Assembly: GCA_002421665.1 (NCBI GenBank)
Contig: DISH01000005.1
Coordinates: 78,092 to 142,091, forward strand
Direction: 5' to 3'
From: Candidatus Omnitrophica bacterium UBA6215
GTDB lineage: Bacteria; Omnitrophota; Gorgyraeia; Pluralincolimonadales; Pluralincolimonadaceae
DNA: 64,000 nucleotides
Shown: in pieces, positions 1 through 59,738 of the stretch
Layout: each line of letters opens with the position of its first letter
Position numbering within the stretch: position 1 is the stretch's first letter
Translations under genes and position numbers: made by a program
The notes under the pieces: generated by a model
What the model was told of the DNA's origin: nothing
Database searches by the model: none
Seen by the model: only the letters and a program-made list of their open reading frames with translations

Positions 1-114
1 TTTGCCATGGTCATGGCGGGAGCAGTGGTAGCGACCTTGCCCGTCCTTATCGTGTTTATTGCTTTCCAGAAGTATTTCATAAAAGGAATAGCGCTTACAG
101 GGTTAAAGGCCTGA
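1..114 (+). CDS. Carbohydrate ABC transporter permease, C-terminal fragment (MalG/UgpE-like)
   Basis: Frame 1 translates to FAMVMAGAVVATLPVLIVFIAFQKYFIKGIALTGLKA* (stop at 112-114), which is the characteristic C-terminal tail of sugar ABC inner-membrane permeases. The 5' end is truncated by the window edge. Confidence 0.75.
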   Translation, partial: FAMVMAGAVVATLPVLIVFIAFQKYFIKGIALTGLKA

Positions 115-140
115 AAAGCCTTGAAGTTGCCCTATGGGAT

Positions 141-154
141 TGTTATCGCTAACA
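141..154 (+). promoter_or_regulatory. LacI/CcpA-type palindromic operator TGTTATCGCTAACA
   Basis: 14-bp near-palindrome matching the LacI-family/cre consensus TGWNANCGNTNWCA at every constrained position. It abuts the -35 box of the lacI-GH2 promoter. Confidence 0.5.
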
Positions 155-183
155 TTGACAAAGCACGGTTAATCGTGTAAACT
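155..183 (+). promoter_or_regulatory. Putative sigma70 promoter (TTGACA-N17-TAAACT) for the LacI-GH2 operon
   Basis: Perfect -35 hexamer TTGACA at 155-160, a 17-nt spacer, then TAAACT at 178-183, about 20 nt upstream of the lacI ATG at 205. Confidence 0.45.
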
Positions 184-204
184 TTATCGAAGGGTCAAGA
201 GACC

Positions 205-1230
205 ATGAAACGTTTCGAAAAGTCCAGTATAACTATAAAAGACATAGCCAAAAAGGCCGGTGTCGCGCACTCTACCGTCTCTCTTGTTATGAACGACCGT
301 GAACACGTGTCGCCCAAGCTGCGCGAAAAGATACTGAAGATAGCCAATGAGATGGGCTATATGCCTAACATGGTAGCCCGCAGCCTTATAAGCAAGAAAT
401 CCTCCACGGTGGGCGTAGTCTTTCCCGAGAACCCGCATTTTTTCACCATAACGTACTTCCTTATGATAATCGAGGGTATACAGAATGCCTGCAAGAAATA
501 TAATAGGGCGCTTATGTTCTTCAGCCTTGACCAGACCAAGGGCGAGTCATATTACCAGATCTCCAGAAAGTGGCTCATCGACCTCATGATAATAATGAAC
601 GTAGACTATACCAGGGACATCTCCAAGGACATCCAGGACTTGAGGGATAACGGCATTTACTTCTCTTTCCTGACTAAGTATCTCGGGAAAGAAAAGGTCA
701 ATTCGGTATGCGTGGATAATTATGAGGGCGTCAGGATGGTGCTTGAGCATCTTGCCTCGCAGGGCCATAAACGAGTAGGTTATATCGCGGGTAATCCTAA
801 TTCGGCCGACGGTCCCGAGAGGACCCAGGCATACAAGGCCTTATATAAGAAGATGGGTTTAGACCAGGACGAGGAACTCATTGTCCAGGGTGATTTTACC
901 TTTGAGAGCGGAGAGAGGGAAGCCCCTAAGCTCCTGGACCTCAAGAAGCCCCCTACCGCGATATTCGCCGCTAGCGACTATATGGCGATAGGCGCTATGA
1001 GGGTGATCAAGGAACGCGGACTTTCCATACCGGGAGATATCGCAGTTATGGGTTTCGACAACACCCTGGAAGCTGCTTACGTTGAGCCTGCCCTTACCAC
1101 CATAAGGCAGCCGCTGCAGGAGATGGGAGAGAAAGCCGTAGACCTGGCTATACGTTCCATGAATGACGAGAGTTTTGAACCGCAGTCACTTGCCATTAAA
1201 CCGGAGCTCATAAAGAGACAATCATGCTGA
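205..1230 (+). CDS. LacI-family transcriptional regulator
   Basis: N-terminal HTH IKDIAKKAGVAHSTVSLVMN followed by a periplasmic-binding-protein-like sugar-binding fold. The stop overlaps the start of the downstream GH2 gene. Confidence 0.9.
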   Translation: MKRFEKSSITIKDIAKKAGVAHSTVSLVMNDREHVSPKLREKILKIANEMGYMPNMVARSLISKKSSTVGVVFPENPHFFTITYFLMIIEGIQNACKKYNRALMFFSLDQTKGESYYQISRKWLIDLMIIMNVDYTRDISKDIQDLRDNGIYFSFLTKYLGKEKVNSVCVDNYEGVRMVLEHLASQGHKRVGYIAGNPNSADGPERTQAYKALYKKMGLDQDEELIVQGDFTFESGEREAPKLLDLKKPPTAIFAASDYMAIGAMRVIKERGLSIPGDIAVMGFDNTLEAAYVEPALTTIRQPLQEMGEKAVDLAIRSMNDESFEPQSLAIKPELIKRQSC

Positions 1231-4200
1231 AAAAAATCTTTAGCCAAGCGGTGTATCATGTCCTTTTAGCCCTTATTTTATCTTCCGTGCCGGCATTCGC
1301 AGCGGCCCAGCCCGAGGCCGAAGAAAAGACGCAACCGCCCACTTTTGAGATAAAACAGATAGACGAGGTCTTTGTCCCCTTCCAGAACGGCATACCATAT
1401 CCTTCATGGGAAAGGCAGGAGCGTGAATATATAGACCTGGACGGGCAATGGAGATCGCAGCGCCAGGCAGTAGACCATAAACTTACCCTTTCCGAGAGGA
1501 CCTCGGAGGGTATAACCAGGGTGGAACAGGAGGGCGCGGGAAGGCAGAAACCGGATTATGACGATAAGGCATGGAATGACAAAACCATCCCCGGGGTGGA
1601 GAATCCCGCTCCCGATAGATATATGGACGGCGTCTGGTACAGGCGTCATTTCGAAGTGCCTGCGGATGCCGCGGGCAAATACGTCAAGCTTATGTTCGAA
1701 GCCGCCAACTATTTTACCGACGTGTGGGTCAACGGGAAATGGGTAGGCTGCCACGAAGGCGGGTATACGCCGTTCGCTTTCGACGTAAGCAAATACCTGA
1801 ATTACGGCAAGGATAACGTTATCGCGGTAAGGGTAGATAACATCCCCTGGATACCTCACGGCGACAGTTCATCGGAGGCGCAGAGGACCAACGGGCATAA
1901 CATAATCCCGTATGCGACTTGCGACTGGTGGAATTACGGCGGCATAACCAGGGATGTCTATCTTGAGATCTCCCCCGCAGTCTCGGTCGTCCGCGCCGAC
2001 ATAAAGGCAAAGCCGGCCGGCGAGAAGGATTCAGAGGTCAACGTAAACGTTACCGTCTATAACAACGGCGATTCGGAAATAACCGTCCCGGTCTCTATCA
2101 GGGTCCTCGGCACCAACATGAGGCAGAAGGACATAGAGACCGTTAATGCCAAAAAATTATCATCGAACAGGACAATGTCGGTAAAAGGCGATACTTCCAG
2201 GGAGATAACGCTCAAGCCCGGCGAGGCACGGGCGGCAAGTTTTTCGCTTACTTCCGGTGCGCTGAAGTTCTGGTCGCCTGAATCCCCGGAGCTCTATGTC
2301 CTGCAGGTTACGTTAGGCGATAAAAAGAGGAAACTGGATGATTTCTATACGCAGTTTGGGATCAGACAGGTCCAGGTTGACAAGGCGAGTTCAAAGATAC
2401 TCCTTAACGGGAAAGAGATATTCCTGCGCGGTATCGCCAGGCATGAGGCTTTCTACGGAGAGCCCGGCCCTCCGGATTTCGGCCCTTTAAGGGTGGCCGG
2501 GGATTTCGGGTTTGTTAAGGAAGCGAACGCGAATTTTGTCAGGACCGCCCATTACCCTAACCAGCAGCAGACGTATGTGATAGCTGACAGGATGGGATTG
2601 CTTATATGGGAAGAGATCCCGGTCTTCTGGTTCGGAGGACCCGAATTCATGATGCAGAAGAACGTGCGCGGTATCGCCAGGCAGATGTGGCTTGAGATGA
2701 TATACCGTGACTACAACAGGCCGTCCATAATAATACTGGGTACATGCAACGAATGCAGCTGGCAGAAAGAGAGGGCCGACTTCATAAAGGACCTCAAGGA
2801 CAACGCCTCGAAGGTCGACGGCACCCGCCTCGTTGCCCAGTCTGCTTCGGGCAGTGATCCTACGGACGCGACCCAAAAGGAATGCGACGTGATCGGTTTC
2901 ACCACTTATTATGGGATATTCTACGGCAGCTCTTATTATACGGACACGAAAGAGGCCCTCGAAAAGACGCATAAGGCCTTTCCCGGTAAACCTATCGTAT
3001 CCACCGAATACGGCATATGGTCGGCCTATGGGGATGTCCCGCAGGAGAGGATGCAGGTCGATGTCGCGAAAGACACTTTCGCGGCGTTCGCCGAACTTCC
3101 TTTTGTGGCCGGCTCCGCCTGGTGGACCCTTGCCGATTGGCATACTATGATAACCGAGCCCCAGCACATGGGACTCTTGACCATCGACAGGAAGTCGCAA
3201 AAGCCCGTTTATTTCCAGATCCAGAAGCAGCATGCCACCCTTTTGGGCGACCTCTCGGTGAACCTGAAGGAGCCGAAGGATGACGATACCGTAAAAGGCA
3301 AGATACGTATATCTGCGGAAATAAAAGGCAAAGAGAAGCCGCAATTTATAGATCTTATAGTCGAAGGCAAGGAGCTCGGCAGGCTTTCTCAGAAGAAAGA
3401 TATCTCCCAGATGGATTTAGATACATCCAAGCTGCCTGACGGTCCGAATACGCTTATAGTGCGCGCAAAGAGCAAGCAGGGATATTACGTCTCGGATTTT
3501 GTCAGGATAAATGTTGACAATAACGATGAACCTCCGGTCCTGGATATAACCGTTAAGGACGGCGACCTTGTTATGGGGCGTGTAGCGCTTAGCGCGATAG
3601 CTTCAGACGACAGGGATACCCCGAAGGTCACTTACTCTATAGACGGGTCGGAACCCAAGAGAATGTCCAACCCCTCTGAGAATTCTTACCAGGCGGAATG
3701 GGACGCATCCGGGCTCGCTGACGGGTCGATGCATGAATTGACCTTTACCGCCGCGGACTCGTCCGGGCAGACTGTCGAGAAGAAAGTTACCGTTAAGATC
3801 GATAACAAGCCCGGAAGGTATGTTGAGCTGCCCTTCGACCACGACTGGATATCAAACAACGGGAAATATACGGACGGGACGGGATGGGATTTCGCGGCTG
3901 AAGACCTGCCTGCTTCGAATTCGGAATTTATCTTCAACGGCGCTGATAAGGTAAAATTCAAGTTCGGCGACAAGGCCGACGGCGCGTTGAACAATGTTGA
4001 ATGCGCGAAGCAGAAGATATCTTTCTCGCCCGGATATTACAGCAAGGTCTATATACTCGGGTCGATGCATGACGGCGGCGCCAGGTGTCCGTTCCTGCTC
4101 AATTATACCGACGGGACCCAAGAGAAAGTCCTTGCCGGATTCTCTGACTGGTGGGGCGGAAACCCGGTTTTCGGCGAGGCCGTTGCGATAAAGACCACCC

Positions 4201-5813
4201 ACCATCATGAGGCCAGCGGCGAAAGGAAACCGGGCTCAGGGATATACATGCAGACGATCGAGCCTGACAGCAAGAAAGTCCTGTCTTCAATAATACTGCC
4301 TGCCGAGCCGAAATTGCACGTATTTGCCATGACGCTTGAAGGGGAAGAGTGCAATGACGCTGTACCGGAGCCTTCCATACTTGAGCCCCGGGCGAACGCG
4401 TCGGTCGGGGATATCGTCAGGATAGTTGCCGAAGATACGGAGAGCGATATATCAAAGATGGAATATTCGGTAGATTCCGGCGAATGGCTGCCTATGAAGG
4501 CTGAAGCCGAAGGAAAGTATACCGCGGAATGGGACACGACAAAAACCGGCCGCATAGAACACTCGATAAAGATCAAGGCTACGGATAAGATAGGCCAGAT
4601 AAGCGTAAAAGGCATAGATGTAAGGGTCATAAACCGCGTTACCATAATATTCCCGTTCGAGGGTGCCAGTATCTATAAGACCGCGAACATAATGGTAGAG
4701 CCGAGAGCCAACAGGGAAGCGGAGAAGATCGAATTTTCGGTGGATAACGGGGTTTTTGTCGCCATGCCCCTTTCAGGGATGGGTCTTTATACAGCGGAAT
4801 GGGATACGCAAGGATATAAACCGGGTTCAAACCATTTGCTCGTGGTCAGGGAGTATGAAAAAGGCGGCGCCGTTACGATAGATACCGTAAAGGTAAGCAC
4901 GGATTCCATAAACGTCCTGATAGCAGAGCCGATAAAGGGCCATTCCATAAAAGTGGATAAGAATATCCGGGACTGGGTAGGGGTGCCTTCGGAACAGGAG
5001 AACACGGCCACGGTAAATAACGGTGAATTTATCTGGAAAGACGCCAAGGATGACGATACCGGCAACGGTCATTACACCTATCCCACCAATAAAGCGCTCA
5101 AGAAAGGCTGCGACCTTAAGGAGTTCAGGGTCACGTTCGACGATAATAACCTGTATTTATTGATCAAGGCGGACAGGCCCGGAGATTTCTGGGCGCCTTA
5201 CAGGATAATAGGCATAGACACCGACGGGGCCAAAGGGGGCAAAGGCGGGACACAGGTCCTTGCTGAAGGGGATATGGACGATGTAGGTCCGGACAGGGGT
5301 TCATACGGAGAGATAAAGGTTGCCCCGGAACTGGCCTGCGAATATGTCATAGGTATCTATAATTCATATAAGGGCAGGATATGGGAGGCGGGGAAAGACG
5401 GCACGGGTAAATTGATCGCCCGCAAAGAAGCACAGCCGGATGATACGAAGGGTTTCAAGGTGGATGATTGCAACTGGAGCTCTGTTGAGGTCGCCATCCC
5501 CTGGAAATTGCTGGGCGGGGTGCCTTACGGGCAGACATGGAGATTTATTGTAGGGATAGGCCAGCAGGACAACGACACTTTCAGGGAAATAGAGAAGGAT
5601 GCGTCGGAATGGCGCGGCGGCGGCGGCGAATCCAGCGATATCTTCGGGCCTGATCCCGATGTGTATGATATAGCCAGCCCGGACAAGAAAACCCAGGAGT
5701 TCGAGCTACGCGGTTATGATCCGCAAAGCGATCCCGGCGATCCCGAAGGATTTGCCACTATAACAAAATCATATCTGGTTGTGACCTTCAGCGAAGCGCA
5801 GCAGAAACAATAG
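1224..5813 (+). CDS. Secreted multidomain glycoside hydrolase family 2 (beta-galactosidase/beta-glucuronidase-like) with Ig-like repeats and a C-terminal domain shared with the downstream paralogs
   Basis: Signal peptide at the N-terminus. GH2 motifs include NGKWVGCHEGGYTPFAFDVS and the TIM-barrel region HYPNQQQTYVIADRMGLLIWEEIP. Three Ig-like repeats each carry an AEWD motif (YQAEWDASG, YTAEWDTTK, YTAEWDTQG). The last ~295 aa (from GHSIKVDKNIRDW) are homologous to the ORFs at 5829, 6841 and 7831. Confidence 0.9.
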   Translation: MLKKIFSQAVYHVLLALILSSVPAFAAAQPEAEEKTQPPTFEIKQIDEVFVPFQNGIPYPSWERQEREYIDLDGQWRSQRQAVDHKLTLSERTSEGITRVEQEGAGRQKPDYDDKAWNDKTIPGVENPAPDRYMDGVWYRRHFEVPADAAGKYVKLMFEAANYFTDVWVNGKWVGCHEGGYTPFAFDVSKYLNYGKDNVIAVRVDNIPWIPHGDSSSEAQRTNGHNIIPYATCDWWNYGGITRDVYLEISPAVSVVRADIKAKPAGEKDSEVNVNVTVYNNGDSEITVPVSIRVLGTNMRQKDIETVNAKKLSSNRTMSVKGDTSREITLKPGEARAASFSLTSGALKFWSPESPELYVLQVTLGDKKRKLDDFYTQFGIRQVQVDKASSKILLNGKEIFLRGIARHEAFYGEPGPPDFGPLRVAGDFGFVKEANANFVRTAHYPNQQQTYVIADRMGLLIWEEIPVFWFGGPEFMMQKNVRGIARQMWLEMIYRDYNRPSIIILGTCNECSWQKERADFIKDLKDNASKVDGTRLVAQSASGSDPTDATQKECDVIGFTTYYGIFYGSSYYTDTKEALEKTHKAFPGKPIVSTEYGIWSAYGDVPQERMQVDVAKDTFAAFAELPFVAGSAWWTLADWHTMITEPQHMGLLTIDRKSQKPVYFQIQKQHATLLGDLSVNLKEPKDDDTVKGKIRISAEIKGKEKPQFIDLIVEGKELGRLSQKKDISQMDLDTSKLPDGPNTLIVRAKSKQGYYVSDFVRINVDNNDEPPVLDITVKDGDLVMGRVALSAIASDDRDTPKVTYSIDGSEPKRMSNPSENSYQAEWDASGLADGSMHELTFTAADSSGQTVEKKVTVKIDNKPGRYVELPFDHDWISNNGKYTDGTGWDFAAEDLPASNSEFIFNGADKVKFKFGDKADGALNNVECAKQKISFSPGYYSKVYILGSMHDGGARCPFLLNYTDGTQEKVLAGFSDWWGGNPVFGEAVAIKTTHHHEASGERKPGSGIYMQTIEPDSKKVLSSIILPAEPKLHVFAMTLEGEECNDAVPEPSILEPRANASVGDIVRIVAEDTESDISKMEYSVDSGEWLPMKAEAEGKYTAEWDTTKTGRIEHSIKIKATDKIGQISVKGIDVRVINRVTIIFPFEGASIYKTANIMVEPRANREAEKIEFSVDNGVFVAMPLSGMGLYTAEWDTQGYKPGSNHLLVVREYEKGGAVTIDTVKVSTDSINVLIAEPIKGHSIKVDKNIRDWVGVPSEQENTATVNNGEFIWKDAKDDDTGNGHYTYPTNKALKKGCDLKEFRVTFDDNNLYLLIKADRPGDFWAPYRIIGIDTDGAKGGKGGTQVLAEGDMDDVGPDRGSYGEIKVAPELACEYVIGIYNSYKGRIWEAGKDGTGKLIARKEAQPDDTKGFKVDDCNWSSVEVAIPWKLLGGVPYGQTWRFIVGIGQQDNDTFREIEKDASEWRGGGGESSDIFGPDPDVYDIASPDKKTQEFELRGYDPQSDPGDPEGFATITKSYLVVTFSEAQQKQ

Positions 5814-5828
5814 CTTGGAGGCGGTATT

Positions 5829-6812
5829 ATGGCGGTTTTGTTCTTTGTCCTGTTTGTCGTTTTTTCTGGTCCGTGCTTTGCGCAGTCGGGATCAGATGCA
5901 GTAAAAGGCATGTCTCCCGAAGAAGCGGGCAATATAGCACTGTCCGGCCATAAGATAGAGGTTGATAAATCCCTCTTTGACTGGAAGGGCATACTGCCCG
6001 ATGAAGAGAACAGCGCTGCCGTCAACAACGGCGAATATATCTGGAGGGATGCTTCAGGGGACGACACCGGCAACGGCAGATATACATATCCTTTGGACAG
6101 GCAATTGAGGAAGGGGGCGGACCTCAAGGAATTCCGTATCACCTTCGATGAAGACAACCTGTATTTTTTCATAAAAACTAACAGGCCCGGAGATTGGTGG
6201 GTCCCGTACAGGATAGTCGGCATCGATACAGACGGAGCTTCCGGAGGCAAGGGCGGTACGGAAGTCCTGGCCCAGGGAGACATGGATGATTACAGCTTTG
6301 ATTCTGGAACGTTCGCCGAACTCAAAGTTGCCCCGGAACTGGCCTGCGAATACGTAGTGGCCGTATCTTCCACCTACAAGGGCAGGATATGGGATGCCTC
6401 GCAGGCAGGCGCATGCAAGCTTGTCGCCCTCAGGGACGACAGCCCTGACGATACACCAGGCTTCAGGATAGCGGATATGAATTGGAATACGCTGGAAGTG
6501 GCCATCCCGTGGTCGTTGATAGGCGGACGGCCCGAGAATAAGGCATATAGGTTCATAGTGGCAGTGGGCCAGCAGGATTATGATGTAGCCAGGGAGATAG
6601 AGGAAGTCGCTAACGAATGGCACGGAGGAGGTGGTGAGTCGAGCGAGGCCAATGGTGTCGACCCGGATGTCTTTGACCTGGCGGGCGCCGATAAGGCTAC
6701 CCAGGAGAGGGAACTTGGGAGCTTTAAGATGAGTGCGTCTCCGGGCGATACGCAAGGGTTCGCTACGATTGACAGATCATACCTTACGGTGAACTTCGGT
6801 CCAAAACAGTAG
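5829..6812 (+). CDS. Secreted protein, paralog A of the GH2 C-terminal domain family (uncharacterised; possible glycan-binding domain)
   Basis: Signal peptide MAVLFFVLFVVFSGPCFAQS. Conserved blocks NNGEYIWRDASGDDTGNGRYTYP, DLKEFRITFDEDNLYF, IVGIDTDGASGGKGGTEVLAQGDMDD and EWHGGGGESS are shared with the GH2 C-terminus and the two downstream ORFs. An SD sequence lies upstream. Confidence 0.85.
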   Translation: MAVLFFVLFVVFSGPCFAQSGSDAVKGMSPEEAGNIALSGHKIEVDKSLFDWKGILPDEENSAAVNNGEYIWRDASGDDTGNGRYTYPLDRQLRKGADLKEFRITFDEDNLYFFIKTNRPGDWWVPYRIVGIDTDGASGGKGGTEVLAQGDMDDYSFDSGTFAELKVAPELACEYVVAVSSTYKGRIWDASQAGACKLVALRDDSPDDTPGFRIADMNWNTLEVAIPWSLIGGRPENKAYRFIVAVGQQDYDVAREIEEVANEWHGGGGESSEANGVDPDVFDLAGADKATQERELGSFKMSASPGDTQGFATIDRSYLTVNFGPKQ

Positions 6813-6840
6813 CTTAATAATAAAAGAGGAGGTGGGTTAG

Positions 6841-7770
6841 ATGGGAAGAGTGTTGACAGTGCTGGTAGCTGTATTGGCGTTGTCATCGGTATGCTTCGCG
6901 GATGATGCCGTTAACGGCCATAAGATAGCCGTTGACGATAAGTCCGTACGCGACTGGAAGGGTACGGCGCCGGAACAGGAGAATACGTTCGTTGTAAGCG
7001 AAGGTGAGTACATCTGGAAGGATGCTTCCGGGGACGACACCGGCAACGGCAAGTATGTTTATCCGGAGAACAAGGCGCTCAAGAAGGGTGCCGATTTGAA
7101 AGAGTTCAGGGTAACTTTCGACAACGATAACCTGTATATGCTGTTCAAGACAGACAGGCCCGGAGATTGGTGGGTCCCGTACAGGATAGTCGGCATCGAT
7201 ACAGACGGAGCTTCCGGAGGCAAGGGCGGTACGGAAGTCCTGGCCCAGGGAGACATGGATGATTACAGCTTTGATTCTGGAACGTTCGCCGAACTCAAAG
7301 TTGCCCCGGAACTGGCCTGCGAATACGTAGTGGCCGTATCTTCCACCTACAAGGGCAGGATATGGGATGCCAAGGGTAAGTTGATTGCCCGCAAAGAAGC
7401 CCAACCGGACGATACTCCCGGTTTTAAGGTCGGTGACTACAACTGGAACGCCGTTGAAGTTGCTATTCCGTGGGAGCTCATCGGAGGTAAACCGGCCGAA
7501 GGCACCGCTTGGAGGCTGGTTGTAGCTACCGGTCAGCAGGATAACGACCTGGCGCGTGAAGTAGAAGAAGAAGTAAGCGAATACCGCGCCGGCGGCGGAG
7601 AGTCGAGCGAGGACAACGGTGTCGACCCGGATGTCTTTGACCTGGCGGGCGCCGACAAGGCTACCCAGGAGAAAGAACTTGCAAGCTATAAGGCTGACGG
7701 TGAGCCTGGCGACGCCAACAGCTTCGCCGTTATAAGTAAGTCGTTCCTGACTGTGAAATTCGGCAAGTAA
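6841..7770 (+). CDS. Secreted protein, paralog B of the same domain family
   Basis: Signal peptide MGRVLTVLVAVLALSSVCFA and the same conserved blocks. Nucleotides 7156-7375 are identical (about 220 bp) to 6181-6400 of paralog A. Confidence 0.85.
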   Translation: MGRVLTVLVAVLALSSVCFADDAVNGHKIAVDDKSVRDWKGTAPEQENTFVVSEGEYIWKDASGDDTGNGKYVYPENKALKKGADLKEFRVTFDNDNLYMLFKTDRPGDWWVPYRIVGIDTDGASGGKGGTEVLAQGDMDDYSFDSGTFAELKVAPELACEYVVAVSSTYKGRIWDAKGKLIARKEAQPDDTPGFKVGDYNWNAVEVAIPWELIGGKPAEGTAWRLVVATGQQDNDLAREVEEEVSEYRAGGGESSEDNGVDPDVFDLAGADKATQEKELASYKADGEPGDANSFAVISKSFLTVKFGK

Positions 7771-7789
7771 TATAGAGATAATTAAACCA

Positions 7790-7819
7790 CAGGAGGGGCC
7801 GTGATCCCGGCTCCTCCTG
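7790..7819 (+). other. GC-rich stem-loop (about 12 bp stem) between paralog B and C, immediately upstream of the paralog C SD
   Basis: CAGGAGGGGCCG ... CCCGGCTCCTCCTG pairs as an inverted repeat. No T-tract follows it. GAGG then lies 8 nt before the ATG at 7831. Confidence 0.4.
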
Positions 7820-7830
7820 AGAGGTATAAA

Positions 7831-8790
7831 ATGATAAAGAGATCGGCATTCTTCGCGTTACTTGTATTGTTTGTCGTGTATTTAGGCCCTGTATTTTCTT
7901 ATATAGGCGTAGGGTCATTATCCGGCCATTCTGTACGGGTAGACGGCTCGGTTGCAGACTGGGTCGGGACCCCTCCAGAAAAATATAATACCGCCATAAT
8001 AAGCAAAGGCGAGTATATATGGAAAGACGCCCTTAATGATGATACCGGTAACGGAAGATATACCTATCCGAAGAATCCCGCTTTCGCGAAAGCTGCCGAC
8101 CTGGAAGAATTCCGGATCACATGGGACTCAAAGAATATGTATTTTCTAATAAGATCGTCGCGTCCCGGCGACTGGTGGTCTCCCGTAAGGCTTATAGCCA
8201 TAGATACGGACGGGATGGGCGGGGGCAGGAGGGGAATGAAGGTCATACAGCAGGGCGACCTCAACTCCCTTGATGCCGATACCGGGACATTCGGGGAGCT
8301 TAGGGTATCTAATTCGCTTGCGGCGGATTATATCATATGTATCGCGGGAACCTATAAAGGCCGCATATGGGACGCGAAAGGCAATCTTGTAGCTAAGGCC
8401 ATAGGCGAAAAAACAGACACCAGGGGATTCAAGATCAAGGATTCCAATATGTGTGCCGTCGAGGTCCAGGTCCCGCTGAAGATACTCGGTAATCCGGCGG
8501 GTAAGACCTGGAGGTTCATAGTGGCAATGGGCACAGAGGACAAGGAACATCTCAGGGAGATACATAAAGAAGCCGATGATTGGTACGGCGGCGGCGGGGA
8601 AGATACTTTCTCCGAAGATGGCGTGGACCCCGATTACTATGATCTGGCGAGCCCCAGCCAGACGACGCAGGAGATAGAGCTATCGAGTTATAAGCCGAAC
8701 GCGCCGGCAGGCGATACGTCGGCTTTCGCGGTCATAGAGAAGTCATATCTTCAGGTCAAATTTTCCCCCTACTTGCAGGTTACTAAATAA
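7831..8790 (+). CDS. Secreted protein, paralog C (more divergent) of the same domain family
   Basis: Start taken at MIKRSAFFALLVLFVVYLGPVFS (signal peptide). The ORF-track start at 7801 reads through the upstream hairpin. Blocks GEYIWKDALNDDTGNGRYTYP, DLEEFRITWDSKNMYF, IDTDGMGGGRRGMKVIQQGDLN and DWYGGGGED are conserved. Confidence 0.8.
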   Translation: MIKRSAFFALLVLFVVYLGPVFSYIGVGSLSGHSVRVDGSVADWVGTPPEKYNTAIISKGEYIWKDALNDDTGNGRYTYPKNPAFAKAADLEEFRITWDSKNMYFLIRSSRPGDWWSPVRLIAIDTDGMGGGRRGMKVIQQGDLNSLDADTGTFGELRVSNSLAADYIICIAGTYKGRIWDAKGNLVAKAIGEKTDTRGFKIKDSNMCAVEVQVPLKILGNPAGKTWRFIVAMGTEDKEHLREIHKEADDWYGGGGEDTFSEDGVDPDYYDLASPSQTTQEIELSSYKPNAPAGDTSAFAVIEKSYLQVKFSPYLQVTK

Positions 8791-8808
8791 GACAGATTCT
8801 TATCTAAC

Positions 8809-9822
8809 ATGAAGAAAGTCACTTTTAAAGAGATATCGAAGATCGTAGGGGTTTCCCCTATGCACGTCTCCCGGGCCCTGGCAGGGCATCCTTATGTAAA
8901 GGAAGACCTGAGGAAGAAGATATTCAAGGTCGCTAAGGAGCTTAACTACAGCATCAATCCTTTCGGCAGGGGCCTGTCCAAGAATATACAGATGAAGGCG
9001 CGGATGATATGCCTTCTTACAAACTATGATAATTTTTTTAGGACCGAATATTTCATAGATCTCATAGATTCCATAAGCGAGAATTGCAGGTCGAAAGACT
9101 GTGACGCCATAATAGTCAGCCTTACCGACGATAAACGCGATAACGTCAACAGGCTCAAGAACCTGGTCAATTATTACAAGGCGGGTATAATAGAAGGGTT
9201 CGTATTTATAGCTCCCGACCTCGGTTCGCAGGAGGGGCTTTTCCTTTGCTCGGAAAAGGTCAACTTTGTTTGTGTCGGCAGCAGGATAGACCCCGAGACA
9301 AAATACGTGGATATAGATAATTTCAAGGCGGGCTTTGATGTCGGCGAATACCTCGCGGGGCTCGGCCACAGGAGATTTGCATTCATCAAAGGGGCGGAGA
9401 ACCGTTTCGATACCCGCGAAAGGATGCAGGGGTTCTCAACTGCCTTGGGCATGAAGGGCCTGGAGATAGACCCCGACCTTATAGTAAAAGGCGATTACAA
9501 GATAGCCGGCGGGAAGAAGGCGACCGCATCGGTTTTTTCGCGCAACAAGAAACCCGACGCGATATTCTATGCGAACGACCTGATGGCTTACGGGGGGATG
9601 GAGTTTTTTAAGGAGAAGAAGATCGATGTGCCCGGGGACGTGTCTATAGTAGGTTTTGACGACCTTGCGGCTTCGGCAAATTGCCGCCCGCCGCTTACCA
9701 CGGTAAGACAGCCTTACGCGGAGATGGGTGAGGCGGTAATGGAAGCCGTCTTTGACCGTAATTTTACTGCAATGAAGATACCGGGTGAACTTATAATAAG
9801 AAAAAGCTGCGGGAGGTTATAA
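8809..9822 (+). CDS. LacI-family transcriptional regulator (second copy)
   Basis: HTH FKEISKIVGVSPMHVSRALAG at the N-terminus, followed by a PBP-like domain. Confidence 0.85.
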   Translation: MKKVTFKEISKIVGVSPMHVSRALAGHPYVKEDLRKKIFKVAKELNYSINPFGRGLSKNIQMKARMICLLTNYDNFFRTEYFIDLIDSISENCRSKDCDAIIVSLTDDKRDNVNRLKNLVNYYKAGIIEGFVFIAPDLGSQEGLFLCSEKVNFVCVGSRIDPETKYVDIDNFKAGFDVGEYLAGLGHRRFAFIKGAENRFDTRERMQGFSTALGMKGLEIDPDLIVKGDYKIAGGKKATASVFSRNKKPDAIFYANDLMAYGGMEFFKEKKIDVPGDVSIVGFDDLAASANCRPPLTTVRQPYAEMGEAVMEAVFDRNFTAMKIPGELIIRKSCGRL

Positions 9823-9830
9823 AGGAGACC

Positions 9831-12800
9831 ATGATGAGCACCAGCGCGGTATACAGGATAGGCGATGACAACGAATTCATTATAGAGAACTATAACCATT
9901 CCAAAGCGTTTTCCAGCTTTCTGCCGGGGATCGCCGGCCTGGACGGAATACCCATGTGGACCTTTTATGTCAACAGGAACCAGGCCGTATGCAGTTTCGG
10001 CATAGAGGGAAAAGACCGCTCTATGATGGAGTTCTTTCCCGCAAACTTCGCCTACCAACTTGTAGGATCGCAGGGTTTCAGGACATTCATCAAGTTATCC
10101 TCGAAAGACGGCTATATTTATTACGAACCTTTCCGTACTTATGAGAAGGAAGAGAAATATATTCCTTCTCAGACTATGGTGATAAGGCCCTATTCCGTGA
10201 CCATAATGGAAGAGAACCGCAAGCTTGGCCTGGACGTGAAGATAGAATATTGTAACCTGTCAGGCAGGCCTTTCCCCGGACTCATGAGAAAGGTTGAGGT
10301 CAGGAATACTTCACGCAAACAGGTTTCGTTCGAGATCATAGACGGTATGCCGCAGGTAGTCCCGTTCGGAATGGATGATTTCAGCCTCAAGAAGATGAAA
10401 TACCTGGTGAAATCTTTTAGTTTTGTGGAGAACCTGGAAAAGAAGATCCCTTATTTCCATATCAAGACGACGCATGAGGACGGCCCCGAAGTGGCGATGG
10501 TCAAGAAGGGGCATTTTTACGCCTGTTTCAGGACAAAAGGCGCTAAGATGGAACTACTCAGGCCTATGGTTGACGTATCGCAGGTATTCGGGGCAAGGAA
10601 AGATTTCATATATCCGTCCGAGTTCAACGTTAAGAAAAAGTTCTCCTATGACGCCAAGAATGAATTAAAGAGCGGGGAATTCGCCTGCGCGATGTGCTAC
10701 CAGGACGTGAAGCTGGGCCCTTCAGGGTCACTGGTCCTTACGTCGGTTTTTGGCACCCTGGATTCGCTGGATGGGACATCGAAAGTGGCGCGCACGGTTA
10801 CGGCCGACCTCATGGAAAAGCAGCTTACGAAGAACAGGGAGCTCATCGAATCCATAATGGCCAGGTCGCTTGTCATAAGCGAAGACCGCAGGTTCGACAG
10901 GTATTCCCTGCAAAATTACCTCGATAATGTCCTCAGGGGCGGGCTTCCCATAACGGTGACGAAGGACAGGAGCAAGGTTTTTTACGTATATTCAAGGAAG
11001 CACGGGGATCTTGAGCGCGATTACAACCAGTTCTATACCTCCCCGACCGAATATTCGCAGGGAGATTCCAATTACAGGGACGTAAACCAGAACAGGCGCA
11101 ACGACCTTTTCTTCAATCCCGATGTCGGGATGACGAATATAGTAAATTACGTGAACCTTATACAGCTTGACGGGTTCAACCCGCACGGTGTAGGAGGAAT
11201 TACGTTCAGGTATAAAGGGGACGAGGAAACGCTCAGGTCGCTTTTTGGCCCGAGCGCGGCAGGTGCGAAGGCTTTCTTCGGCAAGCCATTCGCCCCGGGA
11301 GACATCTTCAAATTGCTTGACGCCGGGAAGGTAAAAACCGGTTTATCCAAGGAAGAACTTCTCTTGAGGATACTTGAAAGGTCCGAGGCGGTACAGAATT
11401 CCAAGCACATCGAAGGTTACTGGACCGACCATACTTTTTATAACATAGACCTCATAGAAAGTTTCATCTCGATATTTCCCGACAGGAAGAAGGAGCTCTT
11501 TTTCGATAACACGGGGTTCACCTTCCATGACAGTATGTACGTGGTGATGCCGAGGGAGGACAAGTATATACTTTGGGACGGAAAACCCATGCAGGCGGGA
11601 AGCGTCAGGCTTGACGAAGAAAAGAAACAGATGATAACGGACCGCGCCAGTGACAATACCCTTGTGCGCAAGGAGAACGGCAAGGGTGAGGTCTACAGGA
11701 CCAACCTTATAACGAAACTTTTCATACTCGCGGTCAATAAAATCAATTCCATAGCCCCGGACGGTTGCGGGCTGGAGATGGAGTCGGATAAGCCCAACTG
11801 GTGCGATGCCTTGAACGGGCTTCCCGGAATGTTCGGCTCGTCATCGAACGAGACATTCGAGCTCAAGAGGCTGGTATCCATGGTCTCGGATAACCTCGGC
11901 GCCGCCCAACTCGAAATCCCGGAGGAAGTCGCGGATATTGTTTCCGCGTCAAAAGATATTTTAAACGCCTATCTTTCCGGGGGCCTCGACGATCATGCCG
12001 CCTGGGACAAGCTTACAACCCTTAAAGAGGAATTCAGGGCGAGGACGAAGTTCGGCATAACGGGCCGCATGGTCAGCCTTAGCGCCGAAGATGCTTCGGG
12101 ATACCTTAACCTTGCATCCAAGAGGGTGCAGTCCGCGATAGACAAGAGTTTTAACGGGAATTCCGGGTTGTTTTCCGGGTATTTTATAAATATCCCGGTT
12201 GATTACGAGAAGATAACTTTTACCGATGATAAGGGCAGGGAAGTTCCAAGGACAAACCATAAGGGGCTCCCCTGCATAAAGGTCAAGAAGTTCGAGTCGA
12301 AGGCGCTTCCTCTCTTCCTGGAGGCGCAGGTTCACGCGATGAGGACGGAGAAAGACATATCGCTCAAGGCGCGGCTTCACGGAAATCTCATGAAGAGCGG
12401 GCTGGTGGACAAGAAGCTGAAGATGTTCTTCGTCAACGACTCCATTGCCAATGAGCCGTACGAGATAGGCAGGATCAAGACGTTCAATCCGGGCTGGCTG
12501 GAGAACCAGTCGATATGGCTGCATATGGAATACAAATATATGCTCGAACTCCTAAGGGGAGGCCTTTATAAGGACTTCTTCAGGAACATGAAGAACGTGT
12601 TGGTGCCGTTCCTTCCCGCCGAGGTATACGGCAGGAGTGTATTTGAGAACTCGTCCTTCATTGCCAGCAGCGCACATCCGGATAAGAAGGTCCACGGGCA
12701 GGGGTTCTACGCGCGCCTGTCCGGCTCCACAGCGGAATTCATACATATGTGGCTTATCATGATGACCGGCGGCAGGCCGTTCGGGTTAGACGGCAGCGGC

Positions 12801-13124
12801 AAGCTTATATTCAAGCTTTGTCCCGTGATAGAGGCGAGGATGTTCCTTAAAAAAGACCGCAAGGTGAGCTATTACCTGCCGGACGGGACCTTGAAGACCG
12901 AAACGGCCGGGAAGGGAACGCTGAAATTCATGTTCCTCGGAAGCATTCCCGTTACATATGTCAATGCTTCAGGTAAAGATATATCAGGGGACAACGGCAA
13001 GACGCGCTATGAAGTTACCATGGATGACGCCACCGTCAAGTTTTTTGACGGGGAAGTCCCCGAACCGTATTCAGCCATGATCAGGCAGGGGAAAGCCCGG
13101 GAGATAAAAGTTTACTTTAACTGA
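9831..13124 (+). CDS. Large cytoplasmic protein, putative glycoside hydrolase/phosphorylase of an (alpha/alpha)6-barrel-like family (family unassigned)
   Basis: 1097 aa with no signal peptide. It lies between a LacI regulator and a GH35 gene. The N-terminus (YRIGDDNEFIIENYNHSKAFSSFLPGIAG) loosely resembles GH94/GH65-type phosphorylase N-termini. The C-terminal region ENQSIWLHMEYKYMLELL is reminiscent of six-hairpin glycosidases. The family cannot be assigned by eye. Confidence 0.5.
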   Translation: MMSTSAVYRIGDDNEFIIENYNHSKAFSSFLPGIAGLDGIPMWTFYVNRNQAVCSFGIEGKDRSMMEFFPANFAYQLVGSQGFRTFIKLSSKDGYIYYEPFRTYEKEEKYIPSQTMVIRPYSVTIMEENRKLGLDVKIEYCNLSGRPFPGLMRKVEVRNTSRKQVSFEIIDGMPQVVPFGMDDFSLKKMKYLVKSFSFVENLEKKIPYFHIKTTHEDGPEVAMVKKGHFYACFRTKGAKMELLRPMVDVSQVFGARKDFIYPSEFNVKKKFSYDAKNELKSGEFACAMCYQDVKLGPSGSLVLTSVFGTLDSLDGTSKVARTVTADLMEKQLTKNRELIESIMARSLVISEDRRFDRYSLQNYLDNVLRGGLPITVTKDRSKVFYVYSRKHGDLERDYNQFYTSPTEYSQGDSNYRDVNQNRRNDLFFNPDVGMTNIVNYVNLIQLDGFNPHGVGGITFRYKGDEETLRSLFGPSAAGAKAFFGKPFAPGDIFKLLDAGKVKTGLSKEELLLRILERSEAVQNSKHIEGYWTDHTFYNIDLIESFISIFPDRKKELFFDNTGFTFHDSMYVVMPREDKYILWDGKPMQAGSVRLDEEKKQMITDRASDNTLVRKENGKGEVYRTNLITKLFILAVNKINSIAPDGCGLEMESDKPNWCDALNGLPGMFGSSSNETFELKRLVSMVSDNLGAAQLEIPEEVADIVSASKDILNAYLSGGLDDHAAWDKLTTLKEEFRARTKFGITGRMVSLSAEDASGYLNLASKRVQSAIDKSFNGNSGLFSGYFINIPVDYEKITFTDDKGREVPRTNHKGLPCIKVKKFESKALPLFLEAQVHAMRTEKDISLKARLHGNLMKSGLVDKKLKMFFVNDSIANEPYEIGRIKTFNPGWLENQSIWLHMEYKYMLELLRGGLYKDFFRNMKNVLVPFLPAEVYGRSVFENSSFIASSAHPDKKVHGQGFYARLSGSTAEFIHMWLIMMTGGRPFGLDGSGKLIFKLCPVIEARMFLKKDRKVSYYLPDGTLKTETAGKGTLKFMFLGSIPVTYVNASGKDISGDNGKTRYEVTMDDATVKFFDGEVPEPYSAMIRQGKAREIKVYFN

Positions 13125-13137
13125 TGCGGAGGATGTC

Positions 13138-15906
13138 GTGGACAAGAAGGTGATCTCTTTCGACAGCAAGAGCATGATGGTAAACGGCAGGCGTGTCATG
13201 CTCTACGGCGGGGAGTTCCATTATTTCCGCGTTCCGAACGAATTATGGGAAGACAGGCTGCAGAAGATGCGGTCTGCCGGACTGAACCTGGTCGTTACGT
13301 ATATACCGTGGAATTTCCACGAGACGGAAGAAGGCAAGTTCCTGTGGGACGGCGACAGGGACCTCGATAAGTTCATTACCCTTACCCAAAAGTACGGTTT
13401 TTACCTGATAATTAAACCGGGCCCGTATATTTGCGCGGAATGGGATTTCGGCGGTTTCCCGGATTGGCTGCTTGGCAAGGAGATAAACCTGCGCGAAGAC
13501 GACCCGGTATATATGAAGTTGATCGCGAGGTATTACAAGGAGATAGCGGGTATAATCAGGCCGCATCTTATCACGAGGGGAGGCAACATAGTACTCTTCC
13601 AGGTCGAGAACGAGTATGACCACCTGATAGCCTATACCGGTATAGAGAGATACAGGAAGGGAGCGCTTAAATACCACCTTAAGCTCCTTGAAATGGCCAG
13701 GAAAGAAGGCATAGATGTTCCCGCCTTTACGGTCGAAGGCAGCTTCCTCAGGAAAAGCGAGATAATCGACGCCCGCACCTATTATCCCAACATACCCTGG
13801 ATATGGCTCTGGGAGTTCAACGATTTTGACAAGGCGATAAGGGACTCGGTCGCGGCCCAGCCCTCAAAGCCCCTCATGATCATGGAGCTCGAGACGGGAT
13901 GGTTCGCCCAGTTCGGAAAGCCGCTCTACCAGATAGAGCCGGAGGTTACCAGGGCGATACTCAGGACCGTCATTGCCGAAGGAGCTTCCGTGATGAACCA
14001 TTTCATGTTCATAGGAGGCACGACTTTCCCGTACTGGAACTGCAAAGGCGATTACGGCGGGATAGGGACCTGTACCACATACGACTTCGGCCACTCCCCG
14101 GTAAGGGAATGGGGAGAGGTATCGCCCACAAAGTACCATATGGCCCGCAATACCGCCCAATTCCTCGACTCATTCGAGGATGAACTGTTCTCCTCCGAGA
14201 AAAAAGAAGGTGCCGCTAAATTCGCCAAGGGAGGCGAGACCGTAGCGCTTATCGACGGCAGGAATGCTGTCCCGAACCCGGATTTCTCCGGGACATTCGA
14301 GAATGTTGAGGTTCTTGAAAGATACGGGAAGAAGGGCGGGTTTGTCATGGCCCGCAACCTTACCGAGGATACGCATAAAGTGCGTATATCGTATTTCTCC
14401 CCGCTGGAAGGCAGGCAGATGGTCATGCCGGCGGCCCAGGACCTTAAACTCGCGTCGAGGTCGTCGTTCCTCTTTCCGGTGGATATAACGGCAGGAAAGA
14501 AGGGCGTTGTCATAAGGTATTCCACATGCGAGCTTGTGCTAAGGAAGAAGATAGCCAACGAAAATTTCATCTTCCTGTCGGGCAGGCCGGAAGTACCAGC
14601 GGAGACATTGATAAAATGCCCATCGAAGCCCTTGACACTGGAAGGGAAATTTGGCGTAGAAAAAGTGAAGGGCGGATATCTTGTGACGAATGAGAACGAC
14701 GGCACGGGCATATTGAAGGCAGGCGGGGTCTTCTTCGTTTTTCTCGACGACAAGACCGCGTCAAAGGTCTGGGACCGGCATGATACCGTGGTGATAAGTG
14801 ATTACTATTATATAGAGGATATTTTTAATAACGGCAAGAGCATTGATATTTGCGCTCAGGTGAAGAACGGTTGCAACCAGCGCACCAGGATATTCACGGG
14901 CCTTAGGCCGCGGTCGGTCACGATAAACGGCGAGAAAACCGCGTTCAAGTATGACAGGCGGACGAAGTCCGCCAGGTTTGAATTCGATTGCGCCGTAGAG
15001 GAACTGCCCAAGGTAACCTGGCTTGACGCGCCGCGGTTCGCTTCGGACGTCGAGGAGAAGGGGCCGGATTATGAAGATTCCTCGTGGAAAAAAATAAAAC
15101 TGCCGAATTCCCTCGAGAAGGCGGGCCTGCTGGAACACGGTTTCCTGTGGTACAGGAAGAAGTTTGAGCTAAAGGGGAAGCCTTCCAAGTGCGTACTCAA
15201 AATAGAGACCGGCGAAATGGACCGTTTCTATGTTTATGTCAACGGCCGGTTCGTCTGGAGAGGCATAGAGAACAAGGACCTGGATATAACGCGATTCGTC
15301 AGGAAGGGCGATAACCTGCTTGCCGTCAGGTATGAGAATGCCTACCATACTAAGGCGCACCCGCACGAAGGGGCGATCAAAAAATTCAGCGGCATACTAA
15401 ATCCGGTAAGGGTATCCGGAAAGATATCCGGAAGGGAGTTTAACATTATCCTGGATAACCTGCTTGTCCGCGAAAAGGCGGGAGGCCTGCTAAAAGGTTA
15501 TCACGAGCCTGACTGCATTGAGGTCTCGTGGAGGAGGACGCCTCCGGCCAGGAAGTATGTTATTCCCGAGGAGATGGGGGAGTTGGTGTGGTACAGGAGG
15601 AAATTTCGTTTCCTCACGCGAAAAGGCGGCGTATGCGCGCTTAAACTGACCATAGACCATGCTTTCGAAAGGTGCATAATCTACCTTAACGGCAAGGCCC
15701 TCGGTAAATATGAGTCAGTGGGCCCGCAAAACGATTTTTATATTCCGGAGACATTCCTTCGCTCGGAAAATACCCTGGCAATACTGCTTGAAGGTCCGGG
15801 GGTCCATCCCGTAAAGGAGTTTGGATTCGTGCCGCCGGTTCTCAAGGATCCCAGGATAGGATTTTATTACAGCGCCAAAAAGATACTGGCAAGGATATCC
15901 CGGTAA
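13138..15906 (+). CDS. Glycoside hydrolase family 35 beta-galactosidase
   Basis: Hallmark GH35 N-terminus FHYFRVPNELWEDRLQKMRSAGLNLVVTYIPWNFHE ... GPYICAEWDFGGFPDWLL and the catalytic-region motif QVENEY. Confidence 0.9.
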   Translation: MDKKVISFDSKSMMVNGRRVMLYGGEFHYFRVPNELWEDRLQKMRSAGLNLVVTYIPWNFHETEEGKFLWDGDRDLDKFITLTQKYGFYLIIKPGPYICAEWDFGGFPDWLLGKEINLREDDPVYMKLIARYYKEIAGIIRPHLITRGGNIVLFQVENEYDHLIAYTGIERYRKGALKYHLKLLEMARKEGIDVPAFTVEGSFLRKSEIIDARTYYPNIPWIWLWEFNDFDKAIRDSVAAQPSKPLMIMELETGWFAQFGKPLYQIEPEVTRAILRTVIAEGASVMNHFMFIGGTTFPYWNCKGDYGGIGTCTTYDFGHSPVREWGEVSPTKYHMARNTAQFLDSFEDELFSSEKKEGAAKFAKGGETVALIDGRNAVPNPDFSGTFENVEVLERYGKKGGFVMARNLTEDTHKVRISYFSPLEGRQMVMPAAQDLKLASRSSFLFPVDITAGKKGVVIRYSTCELVLRKKIANENFIFLSGRPEVPAETLIKCPSKPLTLEGKFGVEKVKGGYLVTNENDGTGILKAGGVFFVFLDDKTASKVWDRHDTVVISDYYYIEDIFNNGKSIDICAQVKNGCNQRTRIFTGLRPRSVTINGEKTAFKYDRRTKSARFEFDCAVEELPKVTWLDAPRFASDVEEKGPDYEDSSWKKIKLPNSLEKAGLLEHGFLWYRKKFELKGKPSKCVLKIETGEMDRFYVYVNGRFVWRGIENKDLDITRFVRKGDNLLAVRYENAYHTKAHPHEGAIKKFSGILNPVRVSGKISGREFNIILDNLLVREKAGGLLKGYHEPDCIEVSWRRTPPARKYVIPEEMGELVWYRRKFRFLTRKGGVCALKLTIDHAFERCIIYLNGKALGKYESVGPQNDFYIPETFLRSENTLAILLEGPGVHPVKEFGFVPPVLKDPRIGFYYSAKKILARISR

Positions 15907-58235: not shown

Positions 58236-59738
58236 ATGGCAAAGAAGAAGGAAGTAAAGGAAGTCAAGACAGCCAATCCGTTGGCGAACGGCTCGTTCAA
58301 TGAGAAAGCCGCCCGCGACGTGATAAAGTTGATCAAGGAAAAAGACATCAAGATGGTCGACCTGAAGTTCAACGACCTTCCCGGTCTTTGGCAGCATTTT
58401 ACTATACCCGCCTCAGAGATAAAGGAGATGGACGATATCACCCACTCCATATGGGTCGATGGTATAGGTTTCGACGGTTCCTCGATACGCGGTTTCCAGA
58501 AGATACAGGAATCCGACATGATCCTTATCCCGGACCCGACGAGCGCGGTGGTAGATCCCGTCTGCGAAGTACCGACGGTCAGCATACTTTGTGATATTTA
58601 TGACCCGCTTACGCGCAAGCCGTATTCGCGCGACCCGCGTTATATAGCGAGGAAAGCGGAGAAGTACCTCAAGGATACCGGAATAGCCGACAGTATCTAT
58701 TTTGGGCCGGAAGCCGAATTCTTCCTTTTTAACGACGTGCGTTTCGACCAGAACGAGAATTCAGGCTATTATTTCGTGGATTCCAACGAAGGTGACTGGA
58801 ATACCGGACGCAAGGAAGAACCGAACCTTGGATACAAGATCCGTTACAAGGAAGGATACTTCCCGGTCCCGCCGCATGACACCCTGCAGGACCTGAGGAG
58901 CAGGATGATACTCAAGATGAAGGAAGCCGGTGTCAACATCGAGGTCCATCATCATGAGGTTGCGACTGCCGGCCAGTGCGAGATCGACATAAAGTTCGAT
59001 AAGCTCACCAAGATGGCCGACAGCCTGCTTATGTATAAGTACATAATCAAAAACATGGCCAGAAAGGCCGGCATGGTGGCTACTTTCATGCCTAAACCGC
59101 TCTTTGCCGATAACGGTTCCGGTATGCACTGCCATCAGAGCTTATGGAAGAACGGCGTTAATCTGTTCTATGACAAGAACGGCTACGCGCTCCTGAGCCA
59201 GACCGCCAAGTATTACATCGGCGGGTTGCTCAAGCACGCGAACAGCCTTATGGCATTCTGCGCCCCGACCACAAACTCTTATAAGAGGCTTGTCCCGGGC
59301 TACGAAGCGCCTGTTAACCTTGTATATTCCGCCCGTAACCGTTCTGCCGCAGTACGTATCCCCATGTACAGCGACAGCCCGAAATCCAAGAGGATCGAGT
59401 TCAGGCCTCCGGACCCGTCATGTAACGGCTATATCGCGTTCGCTGCCATGCTCATGGCCGGTTTGGACGGTATCCAGAACAAGATCGATCCGGGCAAGCC
59501 TACCGACAAGGACCTCTTTGAGTTGGGAGAGGAAGAGATGTCCAAGATACCGACCGTCCCGTCATCGCTGCGCCGTTCCATTGATGCGCTTGAGGCGGAC
59601 CACGATTATCTGCTCAAGGGCGGTGTCTTTACCAAGGATGTGATAGACATCTGGATCGAATACAAGAGGAAGAAGGAGATAGACGCCGTCAGGATGCGTC
59701 CGCATCCCTACGAGTTCTACCTTTACTTCGATATCTGA
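58236..59738 (+). CDS. glnA: Glutamine synthetase type I
   Basis: Beta-grasp N-terminal domain ([14 protein letters not shown]) and catalytic domain motifs ([31 protein letters not shown]). Confidence 0.95.

Follow-up and report, generated by a model that had tools for sequence, protein, structure and literature searches.

Two adjacent genes in a 64,000-nucleotide stretch of DNA (the window) from an uncultured Candidatus Omnitrophota bacterium share a block of 218 nucleotides (nt) without a mismatch, while the remainder of the two genes is 64% identical. The genes, called paralogs A (5829–6812) and B (6841–7770) here, belong to an array in which the same domain occurs four times on the plus strand: at the C-terminus of a GH2-family glycoside hydrolase (copy Z) and in three stand-alone paralogs, A, B and C. 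Recurrent interlocus gene conversion is in our judgment the best explanation for the likeness of the A and B tracts, and we hold it to be highly probable. Apparently, parts of the two genes have undergone bidirectional, sub-genic concerted evolution since the window species and a sister species split. All sequences compared are metagenome-assembled, and coordinates are those of the whole 64-kb window.

The identical tracts

Tract 1 lies at 6181–6398 in A (residues about 118–190, RPGDWW...YKGRIWDA) and at 7154–7371 in B (residues 105–177), both on the plus strand. The two copies are offset by 973 nt, are identical at 218/218 positions and stand in the same codon phase. An initial annotation, made from the sequence, had given this identity as 6181–6400 versus 7156–7375. 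The identity over 218 nt is real, but the B coordinates are off by 2–4 nt, and the two intervals taken literally are not identical. Tract 2 has its core at 6636–6708 in A and 7600–7672 in B (plus strand), with three mismatches (6649, 6653 and 6692) in 73 nt, a register offset of 964 and an exact run of 38 nt. In the wider stretch, 6627–6728 versus 7591–7692, the identity is 89% across 102 nt. This second near-identical stretch had also been seen in the initial annotation, as had the general divergence of the genes: outside the tracts we find 64% identity at all positions, within its estimate of about 60–70%, and 43% at third codon positions.

The annotation had proposed pairwise alignment and GENECONV-type analysis to check its claim, and both uphold it, with tracts of identity far above chance rather than uniform divergence. 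We shuffled the columns of the A/B codon alignment 20,000 times (a Sawyer/GENECONV-type permutation). The longest identical run in the shuffles was 45 nt versus 218 nt observed, so that 0/20,000 reached tract 1, and the longest series of consecutive identical third positions was 26 versus 74 observed. The analytic P value for tract 1 is about 1e-28 to 1e-40. When tract 1 was removed, the 38-nt run of tract 2 was likewise matched in 0/20,000 shuffles. Chance is excluded for both tracts.

The edges of tract 1 are sharp, with identity dropping from 100% to about 60% inside a few nucleotides at 6180/6181 and at 6398/6399. The tract spans the region from the RPGDWW motif to the YKGRIWDA motif, both of which are conserved at the nucleotide level across the copies. 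A 23-nt repeat family (D4) at its 3′ end is 83–91% conserved in all four copies, and a 32-nt family (D5) inside it occurs in Z, A and B. In an AlphaFold2 model of B (pLDDT 92.8), the tract 1 region is predicted to comprise strands 113–120, 152–154, 162–167 and 171–176 together with a Gly-rich loop. There is a possible third patch at 6030–6078 in A (plus strand), which is about 90% identical to 7003–7051 and contains an exact run of 22 nt (6057–6078). This patch is ambiguous, as it covers the motif GEYIWxDAxGDDTGNG, which is kept in all copies and species, and constraint could explain it.

Antisense open reading frames (ORFs) are duplicated along with the tracts. Those at 5714–6283 and 7059–7256 have their first 34 residues in common, and those at 6054–6755 and 6883–7404 share a long block. 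They are the reverse reading of the duplicated tract DNA; the initial annotation had explained them in this way, correctly if trivially. A promoter and terminator scan gave nothing above shuffle expectation that bears on the tract.

Identity within species and divergence between species

The sister species, represented by contig L003, is collinear with window positions 1–14000 at about 90% identity (about 9% diverged). Its A and B genes differ in tract 1 only at four edge positions (6182, 6183, 6185 and 6398), with 0/212 nt differing in the interior. The longest exact match between A and B is thus 218 nt in the window and 212 nt in L003, versus at most 41 nt for any pair of paralogs in 11 other species. 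Between the two species, tract 1 differs at 16 sites, 14 of which are third codon positions, with two amino-acid changes in 72 codons. All 16 differences are carried by both paralogs of each species. Within a genome A and B differ at 0/218 positions (window) or 0/212 (L003 interior), versus 17–19/218 between orthologs. Outside the tracts the pattern is reversed, and each paralog is closer to its ortholog than to the other paralog. The initial annotation had proposed gene conversion with either ongoing concerted evolution or diversifying shuffling. The former is borne out by L003 and four further assemblies of the sister species, in which A equals B over the same tract. Diversifying shuffling does not describe what we see, which is the homogenization of a segment.

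The synonymous divergence (dS) between the species is 0.38 in tract 1 and 0.30–0.36 in the GH2 body, Z and the rest of A and B; the dS of the tract within a genome is 0. The ratio of nonsynonymous to synonymous divergence (dN/dS) in the tract is similar to that of its flanks. In six outgroup species, A and B are 67–76% identical in nucleotides, 50–59% at third positions and 68–79% in protein over the tract 1 columns, only slightly above the rest of the gene. Since the tract diverges between species at background dS and the outgroups lack the identity, protein or codon constraint cannot give 218 identical bases. Matrices of A versus B identity across genomes show a within-genome excess only in the window and L003, and a single scan of each of the genome and metagenome contig collections found no third species with the tract.

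Without any exchange since the split, each genome should have gathered about 16 A/B differences, and the chance of a lineage showing none is about 1e-7. At the 95% bound, both lineages last exchanged the tract during the most recent ~19% of their separate history. Because the species differ at 16 sites and A and B at none of these, the last conversion postdates the split in each lineage. Repeated conversion after the split, in both lineages, would be the simplest account of this timing. The array itself is collinear (Z-A-B-C) in at least eight Omnitrophota species (L003–L010, GTDB representatives), and the duplications are therefore old. More distant Omnitrophota (L011–L014) appear to vary in the copy number of the Glucodextran_C array, with two or three copies found, not four, and contig ends truncate some of these loci.

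To follow the history of the tracts we used diagnostic sites, defined as positions with one base in A and another in B across five related species of one sister clade. The flanks keep their orthology in both the window and L003: 26–27 of 33 sites are A-like in A, and 22–23 of 33 are B-like in B. In the tract the sites are mixed, a signal in conflict with that of the flanks. The diagnostic states in tract 1 are interleaved (seven A-type, nine B-type and four other), a pattern that fits many short bidirectional patches and not one wholesale copy. In tract 2, most sites in the A genes of both species have the B-like state, pointing to an old transfer from B to A. In addition, B of the window has two more A-like diagnostic states in tract 2 than B of L003, and dS between the B orthologs is inflated there (1.74 versus a background of about 0.3). 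The A-like states and the inflated dS together suggest an A-to-B transfer in the window species after the split. In the sister species, A and B are 71–89% identical in the tract 2 columns. The near-identical part in L003 is shorter and shifted (about 6701–6722), and two strains of that species (L029 and L032) carry other A alleles.

Neither of the remaining copies, on these comparisons, takes part in the conversion. Paralog C is 54–56% identical to A and B in nucleotides, and 54% in the tract 1 columns. Copy Z is 69% identical to tract 1, without a within-genome excess over cross-genome comparisons. We also considered and rejected several wider patterns. The similarity of Z to A and to B left of tract 1 shows no within-genome excess in the cross-genome matrices and was dropped as a case of conversion. 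A three-way mosaic, in which B right of tract 1 resembles Z (repeat D3, 77%), was rejected because the resemblance is equal between and within genomes, and hence ancestral. Short patches of at least 85% identity between outgroup paralogs fall mostly on conserved motifs, again without a within-genome excess, and were not retained as conversions.

One strain contig, L031 (JGI 3300045909, Ga0496406_024334), carries A and B copies that differ inside the tract. Its B has the tract of L003, and its A copy has 15 differences (12 at third positions) in 6239–6368. We had read it as a strain that escaped a recent B-to-A conversion, but withdrew this reading because the contig is a patchwork with respect to L003. 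Over 5.3 kb compared with L003 9513–14814, blocks with 0 differences alternate with blocks of 10–15% divergence. The zero-difference blocks include about 2.2 kb across A, B and C, and one of the divergent blocks, of 130 nt, lies inside the A tract. There are also about 10 single-base indels, which split its C and LacI genes. Either L031 arose by recombination between lineages, or it is an error-prone assembly that mixes strains; all it shows is the existence of a third tract allele in the clade.

Two further observations concern other exchanges in this family. In outgroup L005, Z (9317–9357) and A (10280–10320) share an exact match of 41 nt in the left part of the tract 1 columns, with a small within-genome excess (0.81 versus 0.68–0.78 across genomes). 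It is a hint that short conversions of other copy pairs, in other species, start from the same motif. Between the window and L003, synonymous divergence is saturated in A at 6030–6180 (left of tract 1) and in B at 7372–7460 (right of tract 1). Nucleotide differences reach 18% (A) and 15% (B), and dS is undefined and about 2.5, respectively, versus a background of about 0.3. The protein is nearly unchanged in these segments (3/50 residues in A, 0/29 in B). Z, B and the sampled outgroups fail as donors, and import from an unsampled lineage is possible.

Proposed mechanism and alternative explanations

We propose that the 218-bp and about 75-bp segments are homogenized by recurrent non-reciprocal homologous recombination, while the rest of A and B evolves independently. 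The exchange would proceed by RecA-type strand invasion during gap or break repair, either between sister chromosomes or within one. Bacterial recombination can start with about 30 bp or less of perfect identity, the minimal efficient processing segment (MEPS), and mismatch repair aborts its extension; the behavior of an identity block flanked by heterology has been described in the same work (PMC8918686). A founding conversion in the common ancestor would have left an island of identity far above the MEPS. This island would then be the preferred substrate for further exchange, and the process would be self-perpetuating.

The boundaries are consistent with such a process. The right boundary of tract 1 (6399–6416, plus strand) coincides with a length difference of 12 nt, where A has SQAGAC and B has KG. 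L003 and the window species both have the 12-nt insertion in A, which the outgroup A orthologs inspected lack. On this side, the identity breaks down at 6399 (window) or 6398 (L003). Mismatches are densely packed at the left edge, the position of which differs by 5 nt between the species. The ~64%-identical flanks and the indel would halt the extension of heteroduplex, and mismatch repair would abort its progress into the diverged flanks. With flanks and indel acting as a fence, near-equal boundaries in both species would follow without selection, and the identity itself would not require a function.

Some points weigh against this account. The direction of single events is uncertain, being read from few sites in one sister clade of five related species. 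With only two species that have the tract, the events per lineage are estimated statistically, not counted. L031, the sole contig with A and B differing inside the tract, cannot polarize events, given its patchwork nature. Popping of assembly bubbles could erase a few real A/B differences, so that an identity of 100% may stand for at least about 99%. Finally, the parts given here to RecA and to mismatch repair draw on general knowledge and on PMC8918686, and neutrality is presumed.

Assembly is also the source of a more radical alternative, in which the tracts truly differ and a single consensus was threaded through both, by a collapsed or bubble-popped repeat or by a chimera. Every sequence here is judged from assemblies rather than reads, and a positional look-up of contigs for the exact A protein returned none, although the protein is in the collection. 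The tract does trouble assemblers. Contigs end inside it at window position 6288 (L033) and at the window equivalent of 7274 (L032), and L034 starts at the window equivalent of 7255; such breaks are expected of a true repeat that exceeds the assembly k-mer. (With three JGI metagenome contigs broken here, the locus is systematically fragmented in short-read assemblies, and complete A and B genes are likely to be under-represented in databases.) Against an artifact stands the agreement between assemblies from different samples and pipelines, at least three for the window species and five for its sister. In the window species, the tract is present in the window, in L033 plus L001 and in L002. L001 and L002 (JGI, different samples) give B with the tract at 99.8% and 100% identity to the window, and L033, from the sample of L001, gives the first 108 nt of the A tract. 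In the sister species, represented by at least five samples, both copies are present in L003, L028, L030 and L032 plus L034, and the A copy in L029. The 16 sites that separate the two species' tracts, each internally identical, would need an error that recurs in a species-specific manner. Assemblers do not pop bubbles as divergent as the orthologs are (about 8%), and L031 shows that a contig can hold differing A and B tracts. The sole path that uses each flank once should be Z, A-left, tract, A-right, B-left, tract, B-right, C, and this gene order is confirmed by synteny in eight species. We therefore consider an artifact very unlikely. Less probable still is one ancient event before the species split, either a conversion or a partial duplication, with the identity merely retained, although it would most simply explain the near-equal boundaries in the two species. 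It is at odds with 16 substitutions between species and none between A and B (P about 1e-7 per lineage), and with the different extent of tract 2 in the two species. A recent exchange of the whole array, which might rescue it, is excluded by the 9% divergence across the locus.

The near-equal boundaries, in species that are about 0.35 dS apart, could also reflect selection. In this case, A and B would share a central β-sheet that must stay identical for a partner, a hetero-oligomer interface or a ligand subsite, and longer conversions would be purged. Such selection modifies gene conversion and does not replace it. It agrees with the two amino-acid changes in 72 codons, each present in both paralogs, and with the tract forming a contiguous structural block of the modeled β-sandwich. 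Long-lasting prokaryotic concerted evolution has also been argued to concentrate in genes of one complex or pathway (PMC6053082). However, the six outgroups keep the array without the identity, which is thus not required for the function of the array. The dN/dS of the tract resembles that of the flanks, the boundaries match the mechanical barriers of the indel and the about 64%-identical flanks, and the left edge has shifted by 5 nt between the species. On balance, we find selection for identity rather improbable. We give a similarly low weight to the conjecture that A and B are specialized at their N- and C-terminal thirds and share a co-evolving, identical central block for docking (to the GH2 enzyme or the cell surface) or for co-assembly. 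If true, gene conversion would keep the shared block in step, as domain-fragment concerted evolution in an extracellular array with which Omnitrophota capture glycans. Least credible of all is constraint on the nucleotides themselves (an antisense gene, a structured RNA or a regulatory site), or a template/variable repeat pair of a diversity-generating retroelement (DGR). Long antisense ORFs overlap both tracts, and DGRs are common in uncultured lineages. However, synonymous divergence of the tract between the species is at the background level, the antisense ORFs are this DNA read backwards, and an Rfam search of 4500–9500 gave no match at E ≤ 1. Each copy sits in frame within an old, full-length paralog. 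Tract 1 is free of mismatches, and those of tract 2 (C/A, T/C and T/C) are not adenine-specific. The DGR was rejected on this mismatch pattern and the position of the copies, the window not having been searched for a reverse transcriptase.

The four-copy array and related systems

Paralogs A and B belong to an array of four copies, where the initial annotation had counted two. The GH2-family enzyme (1224–5813, plus strand) has 1529 residues, with the N, TIM and C domains of GH2, Big_7 and PF09985 (Pfam). Copy Z is its C-terminal ~300 residues (about 4866–5789, plus strand), found by tblastn with B (62% amino-acid identity). Paralogs A (327 residues) and B (309 residues) are stand-alone Glucodextran_C proteins, similar to carbohydrate-binding modules (CBMs) and predicted to be secreted. 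Paralog C (7801–8790, plus strand) is a stand-alone protein of the same family, for which ATG 7831 is the likelier start. The PF09985 scores of the four copies are 72–84 bits versus a cut-off of 22 (72 for A, 77 for B and 84 for C), which places all of them in the family. The spacers between the stand-alone genes are 28–30 nt, and A, B and C each have a hydrophobic N-terminus. There are no further copies of the domain in the 64-kb window. The A protein is identical to P0001 on a 179-kb NCBI contig from a metagenome-assembled genome (MAG), and the exact B protein is carried by two independent JGI contigs. A sequence search of the PDB with B gave zero matches, and the fold came from the AlphaFold2 model and Foldseek. 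The best PDB folds were the glucodextranase 1UG9 from Arthrobacter (E = 4.5e-9), the CBM74 of Ruminococcus Sas6 (7UWV) and a CBM9 (1I82).

The array is flanked by LacI-type regulators (205–1230 and 8809–9822), and an ABC-transporter permease lies upstream of it in related contigs. Together with the GH2 enzyme and the CBM-like neighbors, these point to a sugar-utilization operon with three predicted secreted CBM-like proteins in this Candidatus Omnitrophota MAG. Beyond the second LacI gene, in the downstream direction, lies an ORF of 1097 residues (9831–13124), which is kept in the sister species and gives no Pfam match. Its sole NCBIfam match is below threshold, to the GH149 β-1,3-glucan phosphorylase (112 bits versus a cut-off of 1150, residues 529–786), and it may be a candidate for an unclassified glycoside phosphorylase or hydrolase. 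The spacer between B and C contains a perfect 12-bp GC-rich hairpin (7790–7819), with an RNA minimum free energy of −27.4 kcal/mol and z = −5.0. It overlaps GTG 7801, where the ORF list has C begin; the ATG at 7831, which follows a GAGAGG, is more plausible as the start. The hairpin could serve in attenuation within the operon or in mRNA stability. Elsewhere in the window, two glutamine synthetase paralogs (58236–59738 and 62339–63679, each with Gln-synt_N and Gln-synt_C) share a direct repeat of 42 nt (41/42 identical; 59274–59315 and 63215–63256) at a conserved motif, which could reflect micro-conversion or codon-level conservation.

Tandem-paralog homologous recombination would, on this evidence, be active and recurrent in Omnitrophota, which are uncultured, have small cells and lack a genetic system. 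The locus offers a well-controlled natural example of sub-genic concerted evolution, with two species that have the tract, six that do not, and equal gene order. There is also a practical side, as an exact repeat of 218 bp breaks short-read assemblies here, and an unmasked tract would mislead analyses of orthology and selection in this CBM-like family. No paper came up in a full-text literature search that combined Omnitrophota and glucodextranase.

Gene conversion and concerted evolution in bacteria were reportedly reviewed by Santoyo and Romero in 2005. The classic case of RecA-dependent concerted evolution is the tufA/tufB pair of Salmonella and E. coli. As in that pair, the tracts described here are identical within a genome and diverged between species, the transfer would be non-reciprocal and driven by homology, and synonymous sites are homogenized. 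The tuf genes, however, are whole, distant genes with interchangeable proteins, whereas here blocks of 218 bp and about 75 bp are homogenized in adjacent genes that are ~64% identical. Wang and Chen (2018) described 26 genes with recurrent concerted evolution, most of which belong to core pathways and have undergone it for over about 500 million years (PMC6053082). In contrast, the present case concerns two sister species (dS about 0.35), a sub-genic segment, and accessory, predicted secreted glycan-binding proteins in an uncultured phylum.

Partial interlocus conversion of tandem paralogs has been reported for mammalian TLR1/TLR6 (PMC2077338) and for HMA4 of Arabidopsis halleri (bioRxiv 10.1101/2025.10.29.685298). 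Both resemble A and B in having tandem genes, a sharp homogenized block within diverged genes and a mosaic divergence profile. They differ in being eukaryotic, with meiotic or mitotic recombination and other needs for homology length. Among bacteria, short-tract conversion recurs between the PE/PPE/ESX paralogs of Mycobacterium tuberculosis, where it is hard to see with short reads (PMC13061034, PMC12046097). Those loci are hotspots of strain diversity in antigen families, whereas here we see homogenization and little strain diversity in tract 1. As for the proteins, Pfam membership of the four copies and the modeled fold of B liken them to the known Glucodextran_C, CBM9 and CBM74 modules; the arrangement of three stand-alone, predicted secreted copies downstream of an enzyme bearing the fourth differs from these. 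The phenomenon is thus known in bacteria, and the sequences call for no new mechanism. What sets this locus apart is the combination of four features: sharp tracts in adjacent ~64%-identical genes, near-equal boundaries in two species, an accessory CBM-like family and an uncultured phylum.

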